Assembly: GCA_028716045.1 (NCBI GenBank)
Contig: JAQUQO010000001.1
Span: 256,942-320,941 of the forward strand
Origin: Patescibacteria group bacterium
Lineage (GTDB): Bacteria; Patescibacteriota; Patescibacteriia; JAQUQO01
Length of the DNA: 64,000 nucleotides
Direction: 5' to 3'
The translations under genes were made by a program, and so were the position numbers. Position 1 is the first letter of the stretch. Each line of letters opens with the position of its first letter. The notes beneath the pieces are model-generated. The model made no database searches, was not told where the DNA came from, and worked only from the letters and a program-made list of their open reading frames with translations. Shown here one piece after another: positions 43,894-50,331 of this stretch.

Positions 43894-44874
43894 ATGTTTA
43901 GCTGGAAAAAAAAGTTTTCTCCACGTCGGCATTACAACAAGGGCTATAATTTTTATAGGCACCGGTCTTTTTTGCCCTCGGGCGGAATTGTCAGAAGAAA
44001 GACGGGGGGACACGTTAGATTATATTTTAGCAGGGTTGTTTTGATGGTTTTTTTAGCCGTTTTAGTGTATGTGATGTATTATTTTTTCTATTCGCCGAAT
44101 TTTAAACTAACAGAAATTGAAATCAGGGGGCGGGAAAATATCTCCGAATTTGCTTTAAAAAATATCGTCGAGGAACAATTTGACCATTCTCGATTTTTGA
44201 TATTTAGGCAGGATAATATTTTTATGTTTAGCAAGGGGTTGGCCCGTAAAAACATTAAAAATAGTTACGTTTTGGATGAATTAATTATAGATAAGCAGTA
44301 TCCGCACAAAATATCCATAAGCATTAAAGAGAAGGTTTCAACCGTGGTCTGGGTAACTAAAAAAGAAAACGTTGATAGATATTATTATTTAGATTTAAAC
44401 GGCGTGGTGCTTGGCGAAATGCCAATATTGGAGGTGGAAAAAATATATACTGATAAAAAAATAGTGGCAGATGAAAAGGAAAAAGCGATAGAAGTGGAAA
44501 ATGACAGCGGAGGGGTAGCTTCTCAAGAGCAGGGGAGTATTATTTTACCCCTGATATATGATTTAAGTAATAGCGAAGTTAAAATTAAAGAGCAGGTTTT
44601 GGATGGCAAGGCCATCACTTTTATTATAGAATTGTCTCAAAAATTTGCCGCAGCTTTTCCCAATATAAAAGTTAAACATTTTGCGACACCAGAATTAATG
44701 ACTACCAGGGTGCACATAATAACAGAAAAGGGGTGGGCTGTGTATTTTGAGTCCGCTAAAAATCTTGACGCGCAATTGCAAAATTTAAAATTGGTATTAG
44801 AGGGTAAAATAAAAGACCCTTCAAAGATTCAATATATTGATTTACGTTTTGACGATAGGGTCTATTATAAATAA
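43894..44874 (+). CDS. ftsQ: FtsQ/DivIB-like cell division protein (POTRA)
   Basis: Basic N-terminus, one TM, then a POTRA-like FKLTEIEIRG region. Confidence 0.55.
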   Translation: MFSWKKKFSPRRHYNKGYNFYRHRSFLPSGGIVRRKTGGHVRLYFSRVVLMVFLAVLVYVMYYFFYSPNFKLTEIEIRGRENISEFALKNIVEEQFDHSRFLIFRQDNIFMFSKGLARKNIKNSYVLDELIIDKQYPHKISISIKEKVSTVVWVTKKENVDRYYYLDLNGVVLGEMPILEVEKIYTDKKIVADEKEKAIEVENDSGGVASQEQGSIILPLIYDLSNSEVKIKEQVLDGKAITFIIELSQKFAAAFPNIKVKHFATPELMTTRVHIITEKGWAVYFESAKNLDAQLQNLKLVLEGKIKDPSKIQYIDLRFDDRVYYK

Positions 44875-44900
44875 TCCCGCCAAGGCGGGATTATTTTTCG
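44875..44900. terminator. bidirectional terminator
   Basis: CCCGCC-AAG-GCGGG followed by ATTATTTTT. Confidence 0.55.
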
Positions 44901-45118
44901 GCATCTAATTTGAATTTTTCGAGGAATTCGCTTTTTTTAAAACGATGTTCTACGCTTCGTACTGTTACTCCTACTATTTGGCAAAATACCATTTCTTCAT
45001 TAGCATCCAGAATTTTTACCCTTTGCCCATGTTTATCTATCCAGATTTGCTTCTTTTCAATTTTAATAGCGGATTCCGTTTTTTCTTTCCTATTTAGTGA
45101 TTTTTCAAATATATTCAT
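44891..45118 (-). CDS. hypothetical small protein (75 aa)
   Basis: First gene of a - strand island of small ORFs; no recognisable family. Confidence 0.35.
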   Translation of the reverse strand: MNIFEKSLNRKEKTESAIKIEKKQIWIDKHGQRVKILDANEEMVFCQIVGVTVRSVEHRFKKSEFLEKFKLDAEK

Positions 45119-45322
45119 ATTTGGATGATTATTTATATTTAGAGATTAATTAAGCATATCTTAAAAATGCGCTTTTGTCAATGTTTAGGATATAAGCGTC
45201 GTATAAGATATATTGTGCGACGCAACATATTATTTAAAATAGAGCTTCCCTGCTTATTTATAGATACCCTATAATAAAAAGACCCGTAAATTATAATACG
45301 GGTCTTTGTTGTTACTCAATGT

Positions 45323-45778
45323 TTACTTCCTGGGTTTAGGGATATAAAGTTTAACTACGCCATCGTCAATTAAACTTTCGTTTACATCAATCCATTCCCC
45401 TTTTTCGTTTTTTACATATAATCTTCCTACCCATCTTCCATATTTGTCTTTGGTTGGCAGTTTTACCATTCGCACTTCTTTGGCCGTATCTACAAGATAC
45501 CATTTTAGTCGTTTTTGCGCTTTGAGGGCGGCTTCTTTGTCTTTTTTGATTTCCGGCGCGTCAATTCCGTGTAGGCGTACTCTTTGATTTTGAAGAATAA
45601 TGTCAAAACCCGGTTCAATATCGGCCCGGATTGTGTCGCCATCAATGACATATGTTACTTTAATCGTTACTGAACCTATTAATTCTTTTGGGTCTTTGAT
45701 TTTCTGTGGTTTGGCGTCCCCTACTAAAGGTAGAGAGATAAAGATAATTAAGACGATAAAAAGAGCAAGTTTTTTCAT
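45323..45778 (-). CDS. nuc: secreted thermonuclease (SNase / micrococcal nuclease family)
   Basis: Signal peptide, then VIDGDTI...RVRLHGIDAPE and the GRWVGRLYV core. Confidence 0.8.
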   Translation of the reverse strand: MKKLALFIVLIIFISLPLVGDAKPQKIKDPKELIGSVTIKVTYVIDGDTIRADIEPGFDIILQNQRVRLHGIDAPEIKKDKEAALKAQKRLKWYLVDTAKEVRMVKLPTKDKYGRWVGRLYVKNEKGEWIDVNESLIDDGVVKLYIPKPRK

Positions 45779-45937
45779 TTTAACCTCCTTTGTATGTGTT
45801 TGAGATGTTTATTTTAGCACATTTTTTATCGTTGTCAAATTGAAAGTATTTTTATATAAAAAACACGATCCGATGAATCGTGTTTTAAATTTTTTTATTT
45901 CCGCGCCGAGATGATTGTTTTACCCCCACTCCCCTCT

Positions 45938-46117
45938 TCACCTGCCGAACAATCGCTCGGAAATCTGTTTTGTTTCTGGCGATAATTTTTTTGGCGTGAC
46001 ATAAGGAGATATCGGAGGGCAAAAGCCGTCGGGGGATAAATTCTTGCTAAAGTTAAGACTCTCTTTCGCGCTTTTTTCGAGTTCTTCCAATTTATCAACT
46101 ATTTCTTGTGCGTTCAT
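45938..46117 (-). CDS. small hypothetical protein (59 aa)
   Basis: Strong SD AAAGGGGGT 6 nt upstream. A terminator hairpin plus T-run follows on the - strand. It replaces an overlapping Arg-rich 67-aa ORF in another frame. Confidence 0.3.
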   Translation of the reverse strand: MNAQEIVDKLEELEKSAKESLNFSKNLSPDGFCPPISPYVTPKKLSPETKQISERLFGR

Positions 46118-46320
46118 TTTTTAACCCCCTTTATCTTTTGGGTTTTTAAATTTTCAAAAAACGTTTTATTTATTAAAATTATTTTTCTATATCTTTATAT
46201 TTATCTTTCTTGCTTTCTTTTGCTCTTTCTATGATTTTTAAAATTATCGCCGCAACCAGGGAAACCAAAAAAATACCGTAAACAGCGATTATAGCAATGG
46301 CGAGTATTTTTAATACCATA

Positions 46321-46635
46321 TTAGCTTAATTTTACAGCTGTGCCGTAAACAAGAATTTCCACTGTGCCGGCCGTAACGCCCGAGGTGTTAAAACGGACGT
46401 TGACAATGGCGTTAGCCCCGAGTTTTTGCGCTTCCTCAATCATTCTGTCAATTGCCTGTTCCCTGCTTTGGCTCAAAAGAGCGGTATATTCAGTCACTTC
46501 TCCGCCGACGATATTTTTAGCCAAGGCCATAATATCGCGGCCGATATTACGGGCGCGAACAGTATTTCCTCTGACCAGCCCCAGGTTTTGGATAATTGTT
46601 TTTCCAGTAATTTGTTCTGTTGTTGAAATAAGCAT
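46321..46635 (-). CDS. YbjQ/DUF74-family protein
   Basis: Family-typical GANAIVNVRF and TAGTVEILVYGTAV. Confidence 0.75.
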   Translation of the reverse strand: MLISTTEQITGKTIIQNLGLVRGNTVRARNIGRDIMALAKNIVGGEVTEYTALLSQSREQAIDRMIEEAQKLGANAIVNVRFNTSGVTAGTVEILVYGTAVKLS

Positions 46636-46680
46636 ATTTTGTTGTTATTTGTTTGTATTTTAGCATAATATAAAAAATAA

Positions 46681-46706
46681 AAAAAGGCGCGTTTTGGCGC
46701 CTTTTT
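46681..46706. terminator. bidirectional terminator AAAAAGGCGCGTTTTGGCGCCTTTTT (copy 1)
   Basis: An identical 26-mer is repeated at 47426-47453. Confidence 0.6.
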
Positions 46707-46709
46707 AGT

Positions 46710-47327
46710 TTAGCAGGTTCCAGTGAATAACCCCCCGCCGGCCTTTTTTATCGGTAATGATGGTATTTTGTGATTCCACTCAACATATACCATTAACTCT
46801 GCACTAGCTTTTTCTTTTTCTTCCGTTGCTTTAGCAATAAAATAATCAAGAACATTGGTGCGATTTTCGGGTGGTAGAGCTTCGTAAAATCTTAATATCC
46901 AGTAAGCGGCTATATACTTTCGTGCCGCGTTTTCTCCGTTAAGCCATTTCAGCCATTTGAGATATTTTTTGGGAGGCTTTTTATCGGATTTAGAGAAGTA
47001 ATATTTTCTAAGATCCGACAGGGTTTTTGTAATATTTTTGACACAGACTGATTCGCGGCGAGCCATCTCTTTCAAAAGCTTAGAATCTTTAAATTCGCGC
47101 TTTTCGGTATTGTTTAATGAATTGTAGTGCCCTTTTAGTATATCAATTATTTCAAGCACGAAACAATCCGTGAGTCGCCCATCCTTAAATTTCCAGAAAG
47201 AGAAAGGCACAATACGAAGAGCGTCTTTTATTTCTTCTCCGTTGTAGGCAGCGTTCAGGATATGGAGAGTGAAATAACCGTGTTTTAAACTCCTCGTTTC
47301 TTTTATTTTTCTTTTCTTTTTTCCCAT
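46710..47327 (-). CDS. hypothetical protein, paralog A of a tandemly duplicated family (205 aa)
   Basis: About 60-70% identity to the next gene (shared DCF.LE.I, YNSLN, FKDSKLLKEMARR, PPKKYLKWL.WLN and RKYIAAYWILR blocks). Its own promoter TTGACA-17-TAAGAAT lies on the - strand at 47374-47403. Confidence 0.5.
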   Translation of the reverse strand: MGKKKRKIKETRSLKHGYFTLHILNAAYNGEEIKDALRIVPFSFWKFKDGRLTDCFVLEIIDILKGHYNSLNNTEKREFKDSKLLKEMARRESVCVKNITKTLSDLRKYYFSKSDKKPPKKYLKWLKWLNGENAARKYIAAYWILRFYEALPPENRTNVLDYFIAKATEEKEKASAELMVYVEWNHKIPSLPIKKAGGGLFTGTC

Positions 47328-47425
47328 TTCTACTCCTTTTTTTGGTTGTTAAATAACAAATAAGATATCATGTATTCTTATCATTTTCTCGTATTTTTGT
47401 CAAGAGCCCCCTTTTGGGACGGAAT

Positions 47426-47453
47426 AAAAAAAGGCGCGTTTTGGCGCCTTTTT
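47426..47453. terminator. bidirectional terminator (copy 2, identical to 46681-46706)
   Basis: AAAAAAGGCGCGTTTTGGCGCCTTTTT. Confidence 0.6.
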
Positions 47454-47463
47454 GGAGCTGATT

Positions 47464-48102
47464 TTAAGAAGGGAATAAATCCCCTCCCGCTTCTCCTGTC
47501 GGCAGGGGGTCGCGATGTCTTCTATCCCCGTAAACGTCGATTGTTGTACTATAATCTTCCTCGGCATTGACATTACGAAGTGATTTTTCCCGCTGCTCTC
47601 TTACTTTCGTAATAAAAAATTCAAGATTGTTGGGCCGGTTTTCCGGCGGGAGAGCTTCAAAATGCCTTAATATCCAGTAAGCGGCTATATACTTTCGCGA
47701 GGGATTTTTTCTGTTAAGCCAACGAAGCCATTTAAGATATTTTTTTGGCGGTCGTACGTTGGCTTCAAGCAAATAGTATTTTCGGATTTCTGATAACGTT
47801 TTTAGAATACCTTGAATGCAGATTGGTTGGCGGCGGGCCATTTCTTTCAAAAGTTTAGAATCTTTAAATTGGCACTTTTCGGCGCTATTTAACGAATTGT
47901 AGTATTTCGCTAGCTCACTGATTGCCTCTAACGTGAAACAATCCGCAAGTGGTCCGTCAAATTCCCAAAAACGCCAATCGGAAACGCGGGAGTCGCCCCC
48001 TTTTCCATTGTAAGCATCTTCTACGAGATGAAAAATAAGATAACTTCTCTTTACACCTCTTGAACCTCCCCTAACCCTTGTTTTTTTATTCTCTTTCTCC
48101 AT
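47464..48102 (-). CDS. hypothetical protein, paralog B of the duplicated family (212 aa)
   Basis: See paralog A. Its promoter TTGACA-17-TAAAAA lies on the - strand at 48151-48179, and the 5'UTR motif TTATTTAACAAC is conserved. Confidence 0.5.
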   Translation of the reverse strand: MEKENKKTRVRGGSRGVKRSYLIFHLVEDAYNGKGGDSRVSDWRFWEFDGPLADCFTLEAISELAKYYNSLNSAEKCQFKDSKLLKEMARRQPICIQGILKTLSEIRKYYLLEANVRPPKKYLKWLRWLNRKNPSRKYIAAYWILRHFEALPPENRPNNLEFFITKVREQREKSLRNVNAEEDYSTTIDVYGDRRHRDPLPTGEAGGDLFPS

Positions 48103-48267
48103 TTCTTATTCTCCAATTAGTTGTTAAATAACAAATATACTGTTCATATATTTTTATCATTTTCTCGTATTTTTGTCAAGAGCGATGTCTCCCTATTGAC
48201 TAATTTTAGTAAAAAAAGTAAAGTGAGGGCAAAATGAACCGGTTCTTTTATATTAGGAGGGTTAAAT

Positions 48268-48630
48268 ATGAGGAAAGATTTAAAAACCAAGGTAACGCTC
48301 GTGAAACACGGCTCTTATTCGTCAGAAAGCAAGTATGACATTACGCAACATAAGTATGGATGCGCTGATTGTGAAGAGGTTCCGCAAGGGTATGCGGAAC
48401 TATTGGAAATTAAGAATCCGCCGGCCGGCAGAGAAGGAGCCGTTATTCATATCTGTATAGATGGAGCCGGCAGCAGAATTTTTGCTTTTCGGACAATAGC
48501 TGAAGCCAGGGCGGCATGGGAGCTGAAATGTCACGAACTTCTTAAAAAAGATATTAATTTTAAGGGAGTCAAGGGGTTTGCGAAAAGCATTAAATACACC
48601 CGTAAAGAGCCGTGGTTTTATCAGAATTAG
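48268..48630 (+). CDS. hypothetical protein (120 aa)
   Basis: Promoter TTGACT-17-TAAAGT at 48196-48224, strong SD AGGAGGG, and a terminator at about 48640-48672. Confidence 0.45.
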   Translation: MRKDLKTKVTLVKHGSYSSESKYDITQHKYGCADCEEVPQGYAELLEIKNPPAGREGAVIHICIDGAGSRIFAFRTIAEARAAWELKCHELLKKDINFKGVKGFAKSIKYTRKEPWFYQN

Positions 48631-48689
48631 CTAAACTATAAAATAGGGATGGATTTATCCCTATTTTTTATTAGCATTAAGTACGAAAT

Positions 48690-48716
48690 AAAAAAGACGT
48701 CAGCTGACGTCTTTTG
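48690..48716. terminator. bidirectional terminator with a perfect palindrome AGACGTCAGCTGACGTCT
   Basis: Flanked by an A-run and a T-run. Confidence 0.55.
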
Positions 48717-48722
48717 GCGGAG

Positions 48723-49007
48723 TTATTGAGTTTTGAGTTTTTTCTCTATGGACTCCTTTTTCTCTTCGGCCGCTTTTATAAATTTTTCGATTCCTCCGCA
48801 AACTGGTTTTTTGGTTTCATAATAGTGAAGCAGGGCGTTTATGCATACCAATCTTTTCTTACTCTCACCATTTCTCCAGAAATAATATTCTACGGGGATA
48901 TCACAGACGATTTCTTTTTCAAGCTCTTTGTCTAAGGGCATTTTGTGGTCCACGAAAAATGCCCGCAAGACGCAGAAGAATTTAACCTTAATATCTATTT
49001 TGTTCAT
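48723..49007 (-). CDS. hypothetical Cys-containing small protein (94 aa from the Met after the SD)
   Basis: SD GGAGGG precedes the ATG at 49007. The 5'UTR shares TAACAAtTAgTTGGAG with paralog B. Confidence 0.4.
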   Translation of the reverse strand: MNKIDIKVKFFCVLRAFFVDHKMPLDKELEKEIVCDIPVEYYFWRNGESKKRLVCINALLHYYETKKPVCGGIEKFIKAAEEKKESIEKKLKTQ

Positions 49008-49071
49008 TTTACCCTCCAACTAATTGTTAAAGTTCTTTTTAAAAGAGACGCTTTTCGGCGCCTCCTATTAT

Positions 49072-50331
49072 TTAAAAATTTATCAAATAATCCATGGGAT
49101 TAACCGGTATCCCATCCAATCTTACCTCAAAATGTAAATGCGGTCCAGTGGTCAGCCGCCCGGCACCTAAGGTTCCCGGAGCGCCGCCCGTGTAAGCAAC
49201 GATTTGGCCGCGCGTCACATATTCGTCCTCGGTGACGGCAAAAGCCGAAACGTGCCCGTAAACCGTGGAAATTCCGCCGGAATGGATAATCATCAGATAA
49301 TTATAACCAAAACCGTTTTCCCTGACTCTGGCGATATATCCGGGCGCCGGTGCGCGTATTGCTGTGCCCTGTGAGGCCCTTAAATCAACCGCCGGATGCT
49401 CAAAAATATAGCGGAAGGGGTAGTCGGGGTCGTGGAAGGTGGCGGTGATGCCGTTAAAAGGTATCGGCCAGGAAAGTATCGCCTGCTCCCCTTCTTTGAA
49501 ATTTATGTCGCTGGCTTCTAATTTTTGTCTAATGGTTTTTTCAAGTGAAGCGATGTCGGAACTTACGGCCTGTTGTTCGCGGCGTAATTGGGATAATAAT
49601 TCTTGAAATTTCGCTTCGGACTTTTTAGTGTTTTCCAAAACTAATTCTTTACTTAAGATTTCTCCCTGCAGACGGCTCTGCTCCTCGCTTAAAGCGAGTT
49701 TTAATTTTTCCAGGTCCTTTTGTTGTGATTCCAGACGGATTTTTTTCTCATCCAACTCCTTTTTTAGCGTTACGACCTTACCTAAAACATCGCGCAGGTT
49801 TGTCTGCATATTTTCCAGATATTTTAGCTGGTCAAAAAAATCAGAAAAAGAATCATTCAGCAAGAAAACTCGCAGATAACCGATATCGTCATTTTTTCTG
49901 ATAAGTTGAAGGTAGTCAGTTAGAGTTTTTTTGCGATTGGCGATATCTTTTTCTTTATCCCCTATCTCTAAATTGGTGCCAGCTATTTCCAGCTTAACCT
50001 GGTCCATCTCCGCTTCCGTTGTTTCTATGTCAATTTTCGTTTTGGCGATTTGATTTTCCACTAAATTTATCTGATTGGCTAAGTTTATCGCCTCTGACCT
50101 CTTTTGAGAGATGAGTTTTTCGTATTGTTTGGATTGGTCTTTCAATTTGTCTATTTCGTCCTTTTTGGATTGTATTTGGTCGTTGATATTTAAAACTTCA
50201 TCCCTGATGTCGTCTTTTGCTGTTTCCGCCAAGATATTTTTTATAAAACCCGGCGAGAGAAAAAAAATACTAACTATAAAAAAAATAGTTAGCAGGCGGA
50301 AAGTATTTGTTTTTTGTGTTTTTGTCTTCAT
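49072..50331 (-). CDS. M23-family peptidase with an N-terminal TM and a long coiled coil (EnvC-like)
   Basis: C-terminal HSGG...YGH...GxxGxxTGPHLHFE matches the LytM/M23 signature. Confidence 0.8.
   Translation of the reverse strand: MKTKTQKTNTFRLLTIFFIVSIFFLSPGFIKNILAETAKDDIRDEVLNINDQIQSKKDEIDKLKDQSKQYEKLISQKRSEAINLANQINLVENQIAKTKIDIETTEAEMDQVKLEIAGTNLEIGDKEKDIANRKKTLTDYLQLIRKNDDIGYLRVFLLNDSFSDFFDQLKYLENMQTNLRDVLGKVVTLKKELDEKKIRLESQQKDLEKLKLALSEEQSRLQGEILSKELVLENTKKSEAKFQELLSQLRREQQAVSSDIASLEKTIRQKLEASDINFKEGEQAILSWPIPFNGITATFHDPDYPFRYIFEHPAVDLRASQGTAIRAPAPGYIARVRENGFGYNYLMIIHSGGISTVYGHVSAFAVTEDEYVTRGQIVAYTGGAPGTLGAGRLTTGPHLHFEVRLDGIPVNPMDYLINF

Follow-up and report, generated by a model that had tools for sequence, protein, structure and literature searches.

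A variable islet of nine small genes at the convergent junction between the M23 peptidase and FtsQ-like genes of a Patescibacteria genome

What occupies the interval between the FtsQ-like gene and the M23 peptidase gene of a Patescibacteria genome, and what kind of event put it there? In the stretch of DNA analysed here (the window, 64 kb in all), 4197 bp separate the FtsQ-like gene (43894-44874, + strand; recognised by a POTRA_1 match just over the Pfam threshold) from the M23 peptidase gene (49072-50331, - strand). This interval, which we will call the islet, holds nine small open reading frames (ORFs) at a coding density of 77%. A preliminary description of the same DNA saw in it a set of lineage-specific accessory genes, each with its own promoter and terminator, together with a secreted thermonuclease and a recently duplicated gene, and suggested an immunity, toxin or phage origin. 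Taken as a whole, that description is partly confirmed and largely right. With a probability of about 0.6, we regard the islet as an ordinary variable islet, specific to its lineage and lying at a convergent junction that is conserved. The annotated NCBI record used for comparison is a metagenome-assembled genome of Patescibacteria, also known as the Candidate Phyla Radiation (CPR) (GCA_028711565.1, contig JAQTRY010000001.1).

We begin with the comparison with relatives. Relatives of the M23 gene (37-58% identical) were found at 83 loci besides the source genome, in genome and metagenome collections. The frame GluRS>M23> ... <FtsQ<(Alr/Ddl)<SerRS is widely kept around them, and FtsQ is convergent to M23 in 34 of the related loci. 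The gap between the two genes across these 34 loci ranges from 130 to 5984 bp and differs in content; short gaps are seen in the loci with the highest flank identity that hold both genes (L006, 711 bp; L007, 130 bp; L016, 185 bp; L009, 671 bp). Three families recur in the gap. An HExxH protein of about 130-147 amino acids immediately follows M23 in 17 loci, a XerC/D-type tyrosine recombinase adjoins FtsQ in 16 (Phage_integrase match, 4e-33), and a membrane peptide of 46-52 amino acids is present in 12. ArsR with SdpI, pilin-like proteins and T4SS-pilin/M15-peptidase paralogs are found as well. In the nearest relative (L005, M23 58% identical), too, M23 is immediately followed by the HExxH gene. 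By tblastn none of the relatives' gap families is present in the 64-kb window, and none of the nine islet proteins could be found in the 83 related loci by tblastn, phmmer or a profile of the islet's paralog pair. The content of the islet is unique among the related loci examined. Since the gap varies in both size and content, the M23-FtsQ junction is a spot of gene turnover, and the suggestion that the islet is accessory rather than core is upheld by the kept flanks, the variable gap and the absence of its proteins elsewhere.

The simplest scheme would be the following. The junction between the convergent blocks GluRS-M23 and FtsQ-Alr-SerRS would tolerate gain and loss of genes in this clade, and in the present lineage nine small genes in about seven transcription units would have replaced the HExxH protein and the Xer-type recombinase that are common in relatives. 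Such a scheme would surprise few, as CPR genomes are full of hypothetical genes and small variable regions. For the most part the islet changes nothing in the current view of these bacteria. It does illustrate cleanly how one conserved convergent junction, M23 | FtsQ, serves as a place of gene turnover throughout a whole Patescibacteria clade.

A few observations on the related loci can be added here. The HExxH protein (LAHEAAHHQKPPY) occurs at L005 1692-2063, at L033 11191-11634 and at 15 further loci, and has no Pfam match; possibly these proteins form a small, uncharacterised family of metalloprotease-like type that goes with M23 in the clade. At L040, L043 (12819-14051) and L064 the junction holds three tandem paralogs of 330-410 amino acids with T4SS_pilin and Peptidase_M15_4 domains. 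The sole SNase-like match among the related loci, at L048, is weak (phmmer E 0.0025), lies about 1454 amino acids into a - strand frame and has a different position relative to M23.

How stable is the islet over shorter times? A sister strain is represented by a 1156-bp contig (L086, from SRR22315509) with 93% nucleotide identity and the same order YbjQ-tm46-orf59-SNase; therefore the islet is, at least in part, stable among strains or within the species. Synonymous and non-synonymous changes between the strains number 16 and 2 in YbjQ, 3 and 0 in tm46, and 2 and 5 in orf59, and pN/pS is 0.27 in SNase. The orf59 frame is intact in the sister strain, and the non-coding stretch adjoining it on the 3' side is heavily diverged.

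All nine ORFs are present where the preliminary description placed them, and all of them look like coding sequence (CDS) in a codon log-likelihood model trained on 28 long (housekeeping) genes of the window: in every case the frame of the ORF scores above zero and the other five frames below it. The lowest scores, 0.07-0.12, belong to parA, parB and orf59, as against 0.20-0.47 for housekeeping genes. The GC content of the islet is 0.374, compared with 0.404 +/- 0.026 for windows of equal size (rank 6 of 120).

The genes appear to be arranged in a modular way, and this is best seen by walking from FtsQ to M23 (positions below refer to the - strand unless stated otherwise). The convergent FtsQ-like gene and orf75 have a bidirectional terminator hairpin in common (44865-44890; -17.7 kcal/mol, z -5.6, on the + strand and -15.1 kcal/mol, z -4.0, on the - strand). 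The first gene, orf75 (44891-45118), encodes a basic protein of 75 amino acids, has no Shine-Dalgarno (SD) sequence and scores 0.26 in the codon model; a promoter-like site TTGACA-17-TATGCT (45153-45181, 10/12) lies 35 nt 5' of its ATG. Next comes SNase (45323-45778), with a terminator hairpin at 45278-45307 (-16.8 kcal/mol, z -6.4) and a promoter TTGACA-16-TAAAAT with a TG extension at 45811-45838 (11/12, the top match of the region). A hairpin at 45860-45886 (-13.0 kcal/mol, z -4.8) closes a putative unit made of orf59 (45938-46117; 59 amino acids, strong SD AAAGGGGG, codon score 0.10), tm46 (46179-46319; a single-pass membrane peptide of 46 amino acids, codon score 0.39) and YbjQ (46321-46635; 104 amino acids, no SD). 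The start of tm46 adjoins the stop of YbjQ (TAAtATG), which indicates translational coupling. Since hairpin terminators are absent between them, YbjQ, tm46 and orf59 look operonic; one operon of YbjQ, tm46 and perhaps orf59 is likely. By eye, the only promoter element found for YbjQ is an extended -10.

The two paralogs follow, each with its own signals. The parA gene (46710-47327) has a terminator at 46676-46706 (-13.9 kcal/mol), and its promoter TTGACA-18-AAGAAT with the leader spans 47335-47407. The parB gene (47464-48102) has a terminator at 47423-47453 (-14.0 kcal/mol, z -4.2) and its promoter and leader at 48111-48183. The only islet gene on the + strand, orf120 (48268-48630; 120 amino acids, SD AGGAGGG, codon score 0.22), is divergent from parB and has a candidate promoter TTGACT-17-TAAAGT (48196-48224, + strand, 9/12) and a terminator hairpin (48637-48670, + strand; -18.4 kcal/mol, z -4.2). 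The promoters of parB and orf120 stand back-to-back within 48103-48267, their -35 boxes 17 nt apart (TTGTCAAGAGCGATGTCTCCCTATTGACT). A divergent promoter arrangement of this kind is typical of regulator-target pairs. The last gene, orf94 (48723-49007; 94 amino acids, four Cys), ends at a hairpin at 48692-48715 (-12.4 kcal/mol, z -5.1); there is no promoter in the 64 nt (49008-49071) that separate it from M23. Behind the M23 gene stands a weak terminator-like hairpin (49040-49067; -12.6 kcal/mol, z -2.7, short T tail) that is 68% similar to the paralog terminator, and orf94 is probably expressed by read-through from M23 past it. The SD sequences of orf59, orf94 and orf120 are strong and at the proper distance from the start.

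These signals can be counted as well as described. Folding gives eight stable hairpins of -12 to -18 kcal/mol (z -2.7 to -6.4), located 3' of FtsQ/orf75 (shared), SNase, orf59, parA, parB, orf120, orf94 and, weakly, M23. Terminator-like sites number 16 in the islet, about three times the 5.8 +/- 3.3 expected from shuffled sequence, and strong terminators are far sparser in the adjoining 20 kb of operonic housekeeping genes (about 3-4). The dense terminators of the preliminary description are thus real. A promoter for every gene was an overstatement: promoter-like sites overall are not enriched in the islet (17 against 13.3 +/- 3.2 by chance), and well-placed matches of at least 10/12 belong to orf75, SNase, parA and parB only. 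Four of the five matches at that level lie on the - strand directly 5' of these genes. The modular layout stands, and the rule of one promoter per gene falls. We read the islet as about seven units: M23 read-through into orf94, orf120, parB, parA, YbjQ-tm46-orf59, SNase and orf75.

The one unusual feature of the islet is found in the paralog pair: exact regulatory blocks surround coding sequences that are saturated with change. The parA and parB units (promoter, leader, CDS and terminator, about 750-775 bp) form a colinear head-to-tail duplication, in which homology runs from GCTCTTGACA to the end of the terminator. The proteins, of 205 and 212 amino acids, are 51% identical and their CDS 62% identical in nucleotides. 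The Nei-Gojobori method gives pS 0.65, dS about 1.48 (saturated), dN about 0.35 and dN/dS about 0.24. The duplication had been taken for a recent one; these values refute that. It long predates the split from the sister strain, because pS is 0.65 between the copies against about 0.2 between the strains. The dN/dS value also means that parA and parB are real, selected genes.

Against this background, the mosaic of conservation is striking. Promoter and leader are 89% identical and the terminators 97%, compared with 62% for the CDS. Exact runs cover 30 nt of the promoter (including the 17-18 nt spacer), the 31 nt of the terminator (31/31, including the loop) and 32 nt of the CDS, the last encoding RKYIAAYWILR; three exact runs of 30-32 nt were matched in none of 5000 column shuffles. 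Both leaders carry the palindrome TTGTTA-TT-TAACAA (47346-47359 for parA and 48121-48134 for parB), which is exact at these two places only in the 64 kb, with one-mismatch matches elsewhere. It lies about 10-20 nt 3' of the predicted transcription start, a position that would be typical of an operator.

Several suggestions can be made regarding what this arrangement might do. The pair may encode an orphan, basic, helical protein from units with a shared promoter, palindromic leader and terminator, and the two genes would probably be co-regulated by one dimeric DNA-binding factor, possibly by their own products. The proteins are basic (pI 9.5-9.7, with 9.7 for parA), hydrophilic and, for parA, predicted to be helical; basic and hydrophilic character is compatible with nucleic-acid binding and is not evidence for it. 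The regulatory flanks could have been held identical either by strong constraint through shared regulation or by patchy gene conversion, and the two are not separable here. The exact promoter, operator-like palindrome and terminator around a saturated CDS make a testable puzzle, that of gene conversion versus regulatory constraint in reduced genomes.

A known parallel may be useful. In Mycoplasma, the vsp and vlp genes for variable lipoproteins form multigene families whose 5' regulatory regions are conserved and whose coding sequences diverge. The paralogs resemble them in their tandem copies, in a promoter and leader far more conserved than the CDS and in the reduced genome of the host. They differ in having no signal peptide, lipobox or repeats, no homopolymer tract or invertible element in the promoter, a dN/dS below 1 and only two copies, possibly three.

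The possible third copy is orf94. The preliminary description had noticed a repeated motif in the 5' untranslated regions, and this holds in two partial forms: TTATTTAACAAC is exact between parA and parB, and TTTAACAAyTArTTGGAG is common to parB and orf94. In the latter, the orf94 leader motif (TTTAACAATTAGTTGGAG, 49014-49031) and the parB leader (TTTAACAACTAATTGGAG) agree at 16 of 18 positions, with a chance expectation of 0.12 per window. The orf94 protein aligns with the C-terminal half of parA with a Smith-Waterman z of 4.2 (0 of 500 shuffles), as compared with z 0.7 for parB, and hhalign against the paralogs gives E 0.14. Apart from orf94 and parA, no homology was detected among the orphans of the islet. 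Possibly orf94 is a decayed relative of the paralogs' C-terminal half; this is a hint rather than an established relation.

Could the tandem pair be an artefact of assembly? This is unlikely: both copies are present in tandem in two NCBI assemblies, and the Logan contigs of two other runs, which reach into the array from either side, stop at exact repeats of at least 31 nt. The contigs L085, L090 and L091 end at the 31-32-nt repeats at 46676-46706, 47423-47453 and about 47665-47700 (about 435 nt into parB), L085 doing so at 46705, within the parA terminator. Exact repeats of this length fragment assemblies made with k=31, which explains why protein sets derived from Logan lack parA and parB.

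How far do the families of the islet extend? Apart from SNase and YbjQ, the remaining seven ORFs have no match at family threshold in Pfam, PHROGs, PADLOC or NCBIfam, just as the preliminary description had it. For orf75 there are sub-threshold matches to DUF4222 (Pfam, E 0.003) and phrog_285 (E 0.0036). A search of 5.8e9 clustered proteins with parB returned itself and parA only, a full HMMER search of 1.84e9 representatives with the parA/parB profile returned its own family only, and orf120 in the 5.8e9 proteins matched nothing but itself. At 90% identity, the proteins of orf94, orf75 and SNase cluster with no other protein. Sequence searches of the PDB with the paralog profile, orf120, orf94 and orf75 gave noise (E at least 0.1). 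Structure prediction had been proposed for each ORF; AlphaFold2 (AF2) was run for parB and orf120, and the models (an all-helical one for parB from a two-sequence alignment) have a predicted local distance difference test (pLDDT) score of 45.8 and 50.6, respectively, too poor for a fold search. The three small proteins orf75, orf94 and orf120 would count as further orphans beside the pair.

Like other ORFan families, the paralog pair and orf120 stand without detectable relatives among billions of proteins and yet bear the signatures of coding sequence. The paralog family differs from very young de novo genes in consisting of two old copies under purifying selection (dS about 1.5, dN/dS about 0.24). 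That a duplicated orphan family of such age, kept by purifying selection, should be missing from some 15 billion catalogued proteins is worth attention on its own account.

The two recognisable proteins are more conventional. SNase, of 151 amino acids, matches Pfam SNase (PF00565) with 39 bits against a cutoff of 21 (E 1.2e-9), and phrog_452, an endonuclease family, with 4e-23. Aligned to staphylococcal nuclease (1rkn_A), it keeps the equivalents of D21, R35, D40, E43 and R87, and the position of T41 is Ala. The Ca ligand T41 of the S. aureus enzyme acts via its backbone carbonyl. The N-terminus consists of MKK, a 16-residue hydrophobic stretch and VGDA|K, a pattern which is signal-peptide-like by inspection and is kept in the sister strain. 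Hence, for the secreted thermonuclease that had been proposed, family and active site are borne out, and export is a prediction made by inspection. The protein resembles staphylococcal or micrococcal nuclease in its above-threshold Pfam match, its conserved active-site residues and its signal-peptide-like N-terminus, but it is very divergent from solved SNases (best PDB E 0.0016; T41 to A; 151 amino acids only), with activity and export both predicted.

If secreted by the Sec pathway, a Ca-dependent SNase would degrade extracellular DNA and RNA. This would fit a role in nucleotide scavenging, since the phylum is largely without de novo nucleotide synthesis, and it agrees with the accepted picture of scavenging in these bacteria. 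An external micrococcal nuclease has been proposed to break down nucleic acids in a Saccharibacteria genome without nucleotide synthesis (PMC6031116); the islet SNase is likewise encoded in a CPR genome, where a similar supply of nucleotides may be imagined.

YbjQ, identified as such before, matches Pfam YbjQ_1 (PF01906) over its full length (127 bits against a cutoff of 23, E 5e-37, covering 1-103 of 103) and also phrog_15412. In the literature searched we found no function for this family. YbjQ, the coupled tm46 and perhaps orf59 may act as one operon. The coding status of orf59 is the weakest of the nine and is uncertain because of its 2 synonymous and 5 non-synonymous changes in the sister strain; NCBI does not annotate it, yet it is called as a gene in Logan assemblies.

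Several points weigh against reading the islet as an ordinary variable islet. The replacement of the relatives' genes is inferred across deep divergence: in the comparison proposed earlier, between FtsQ and M23 in related strains, the variable junction is confirmed, and a replacement is suggested by distant relatives rather than seen between strains. The sole close relative, L086, covers 1.16 kb and shares that part of the islet. The low codon scores of parA, parB and orf59, together with the slightly low GC, could mean a foreign origin. The deep orphan searches cover parA, parB and orf120 only. The poor structural models leave five or six of the nine genes without an assigned function, and a toxin, immunity or regulator role for some of them is conceivable. 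Finally, the operator was proposed from the symmetry of the sequence alone.

Of the other explanations, the one that survives best is a decayed mobile element (a prophage, a plasmid or a Xer-integrating element) that displaced the resident recombinase and HExxH gene and has since lost its genes for mobility. A tyrosine recombinase does sit at the junction in 16 related loci, and the content of the gap is highly variable. The PHROGs matches of SNase and YbjQ, the weak ones of orf75 to phage-associated DUF4222 and phrog_285, the short monocistronic units, the slightly low GC and the low codon scores of the paralogs point the same way. The window itself tells otherwise. Structural and replication genes are missing from it, as are an integrase, a tRNA and a flanking direct repeat. 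More precisely, no Phage_integrase match is found among the islet ORFs, and tblastn with the relatives' Xer-type genes gives nothing in the window; the 64 kb contain neither tRNA nor tmRNA; no flanking direct repeats are convincing, those that span the islet being only 65-77% identical. A tblastn search of 50,697 phage records with parB, orf120 and orf94 found nothing, and in IMG/VR neither the paralog family nor the palindrome of the leader was found; plasmids were not searched. Family-level PHROGs matches are limited to the nuclease and YbjQ, which are widespread cellular families, and the recombinase of the relatives looks like an ordinary XerC/D type that is probably housekeeping. We consider a mobile origin unlikely.

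Genomic islands are reported to be common in Patescibacteria (PMC12455944). The present islet is like the islands, islets and other variable regions catalogued there in being lineage-specific, flanked by conserved genes, rich in hypothetical proteins, lower in coding density (77%) and slightly lower in GC. It differs in having no integrase, tRNA, repeats or clear compositional break, in its size of only 4.2 kb and in its place at a convergent terminator junction, which is not a classical att site.

A second suggestion is that of a defence or toxin-immunity cluster, with the nuclease as effector and the small ORFs or paralogs as immunity or regulatory partners. The nuclease indeed adjoins several tiny unannotated ORFs, diverged paralogs with identical flanks recall immunity-gene arrays, and PADLOC gives a single weak match, of SNase to an SNc-containing candidate (E 3.5e-4). 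The partner of that candidate is absent, however, and the nuclease is signal-peptide-like, monocistronic and unpaired, with its own promoter and terminator. None of the other ORFs has a PADLOC match or a toxin-antitoxin match in Pfam or NCBIfam, the paralogs, with dN/dS of about 0.24, are not diversifying as in immunity arrays, and no polymorphic-toxin gene is found nearby in the NCBI gene list. Such a cluster is improbable, and the toxin, immunity or phage origin of the preliminary description is left unsupported by PADLOC, PHROGs, the phage and IMG/VR searches and those for integrase, tRNA and repeats.

A more speculative idea concerns the paralogs. Conceivably, parA and parB (possibly with the decayed orf94) are a cassette-like family unique to this lineage, encoding an orphan DNA-binding protein that regulates itself via the palindromic operator in its leader; four segments (promoter, operator, terminator and the internal 32-nt block) would be held identical by recombination or gene conversion, and the remaining CDS would diverge to saturation. 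We give this little chance of being correct. If true, it would add to the Patescibacteria an undescribed kind of module, small, self-contained and serving regulation or contingency.

The least probable suggestion, that orf59, orf75, orf94 and orf120 are partly not genes but spacer with regulatory hairpins or small RNAs, can appeal to the absence of homologs and family matches, to the missing SD of orf75 and YbjQ and to the lack of NCBI annotation and the 2/5 substitution pattern of orf59, but has against it the frame-specific codon signal of every ORF, the strong, well-spaced SD of orf59, orf94 and orf120, the stable hairpin closing each unit, the intact orf59 beside a heavily diverged non-coding stretch in the sister strain, and an Rfam scan of the region that gave sub-threshold chance matches only and no family match.

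Two minor observations concern the surroundings of the islet. An imperfect 21-nt palindrome, ATATTGTGCG-A-CGCAACATAT (45202-45239), lies between the SNase terminator and the orf75 promoter; as a dif site it is unconvincing by eye and is without dif's inner ATAA/TTAT symmetry. The islet also lies at the first strand switch of the window. Between about 10 kb and 44.9 kb every long ORF is on the + strand, with a GC skew of +0.1 to +0.27, and gene orientation is mixed downstream of the islet, where the skew tracks the gene strand. A replication terminus with dif at the islet could be suggested by the strand switch and by the peak that the cumulative GC skew reaches locally at about 44.5-45 kb. We rejected this, as both follow gene orientation: the skew turns positive again at 54-58 kb, where + strand genes resume.

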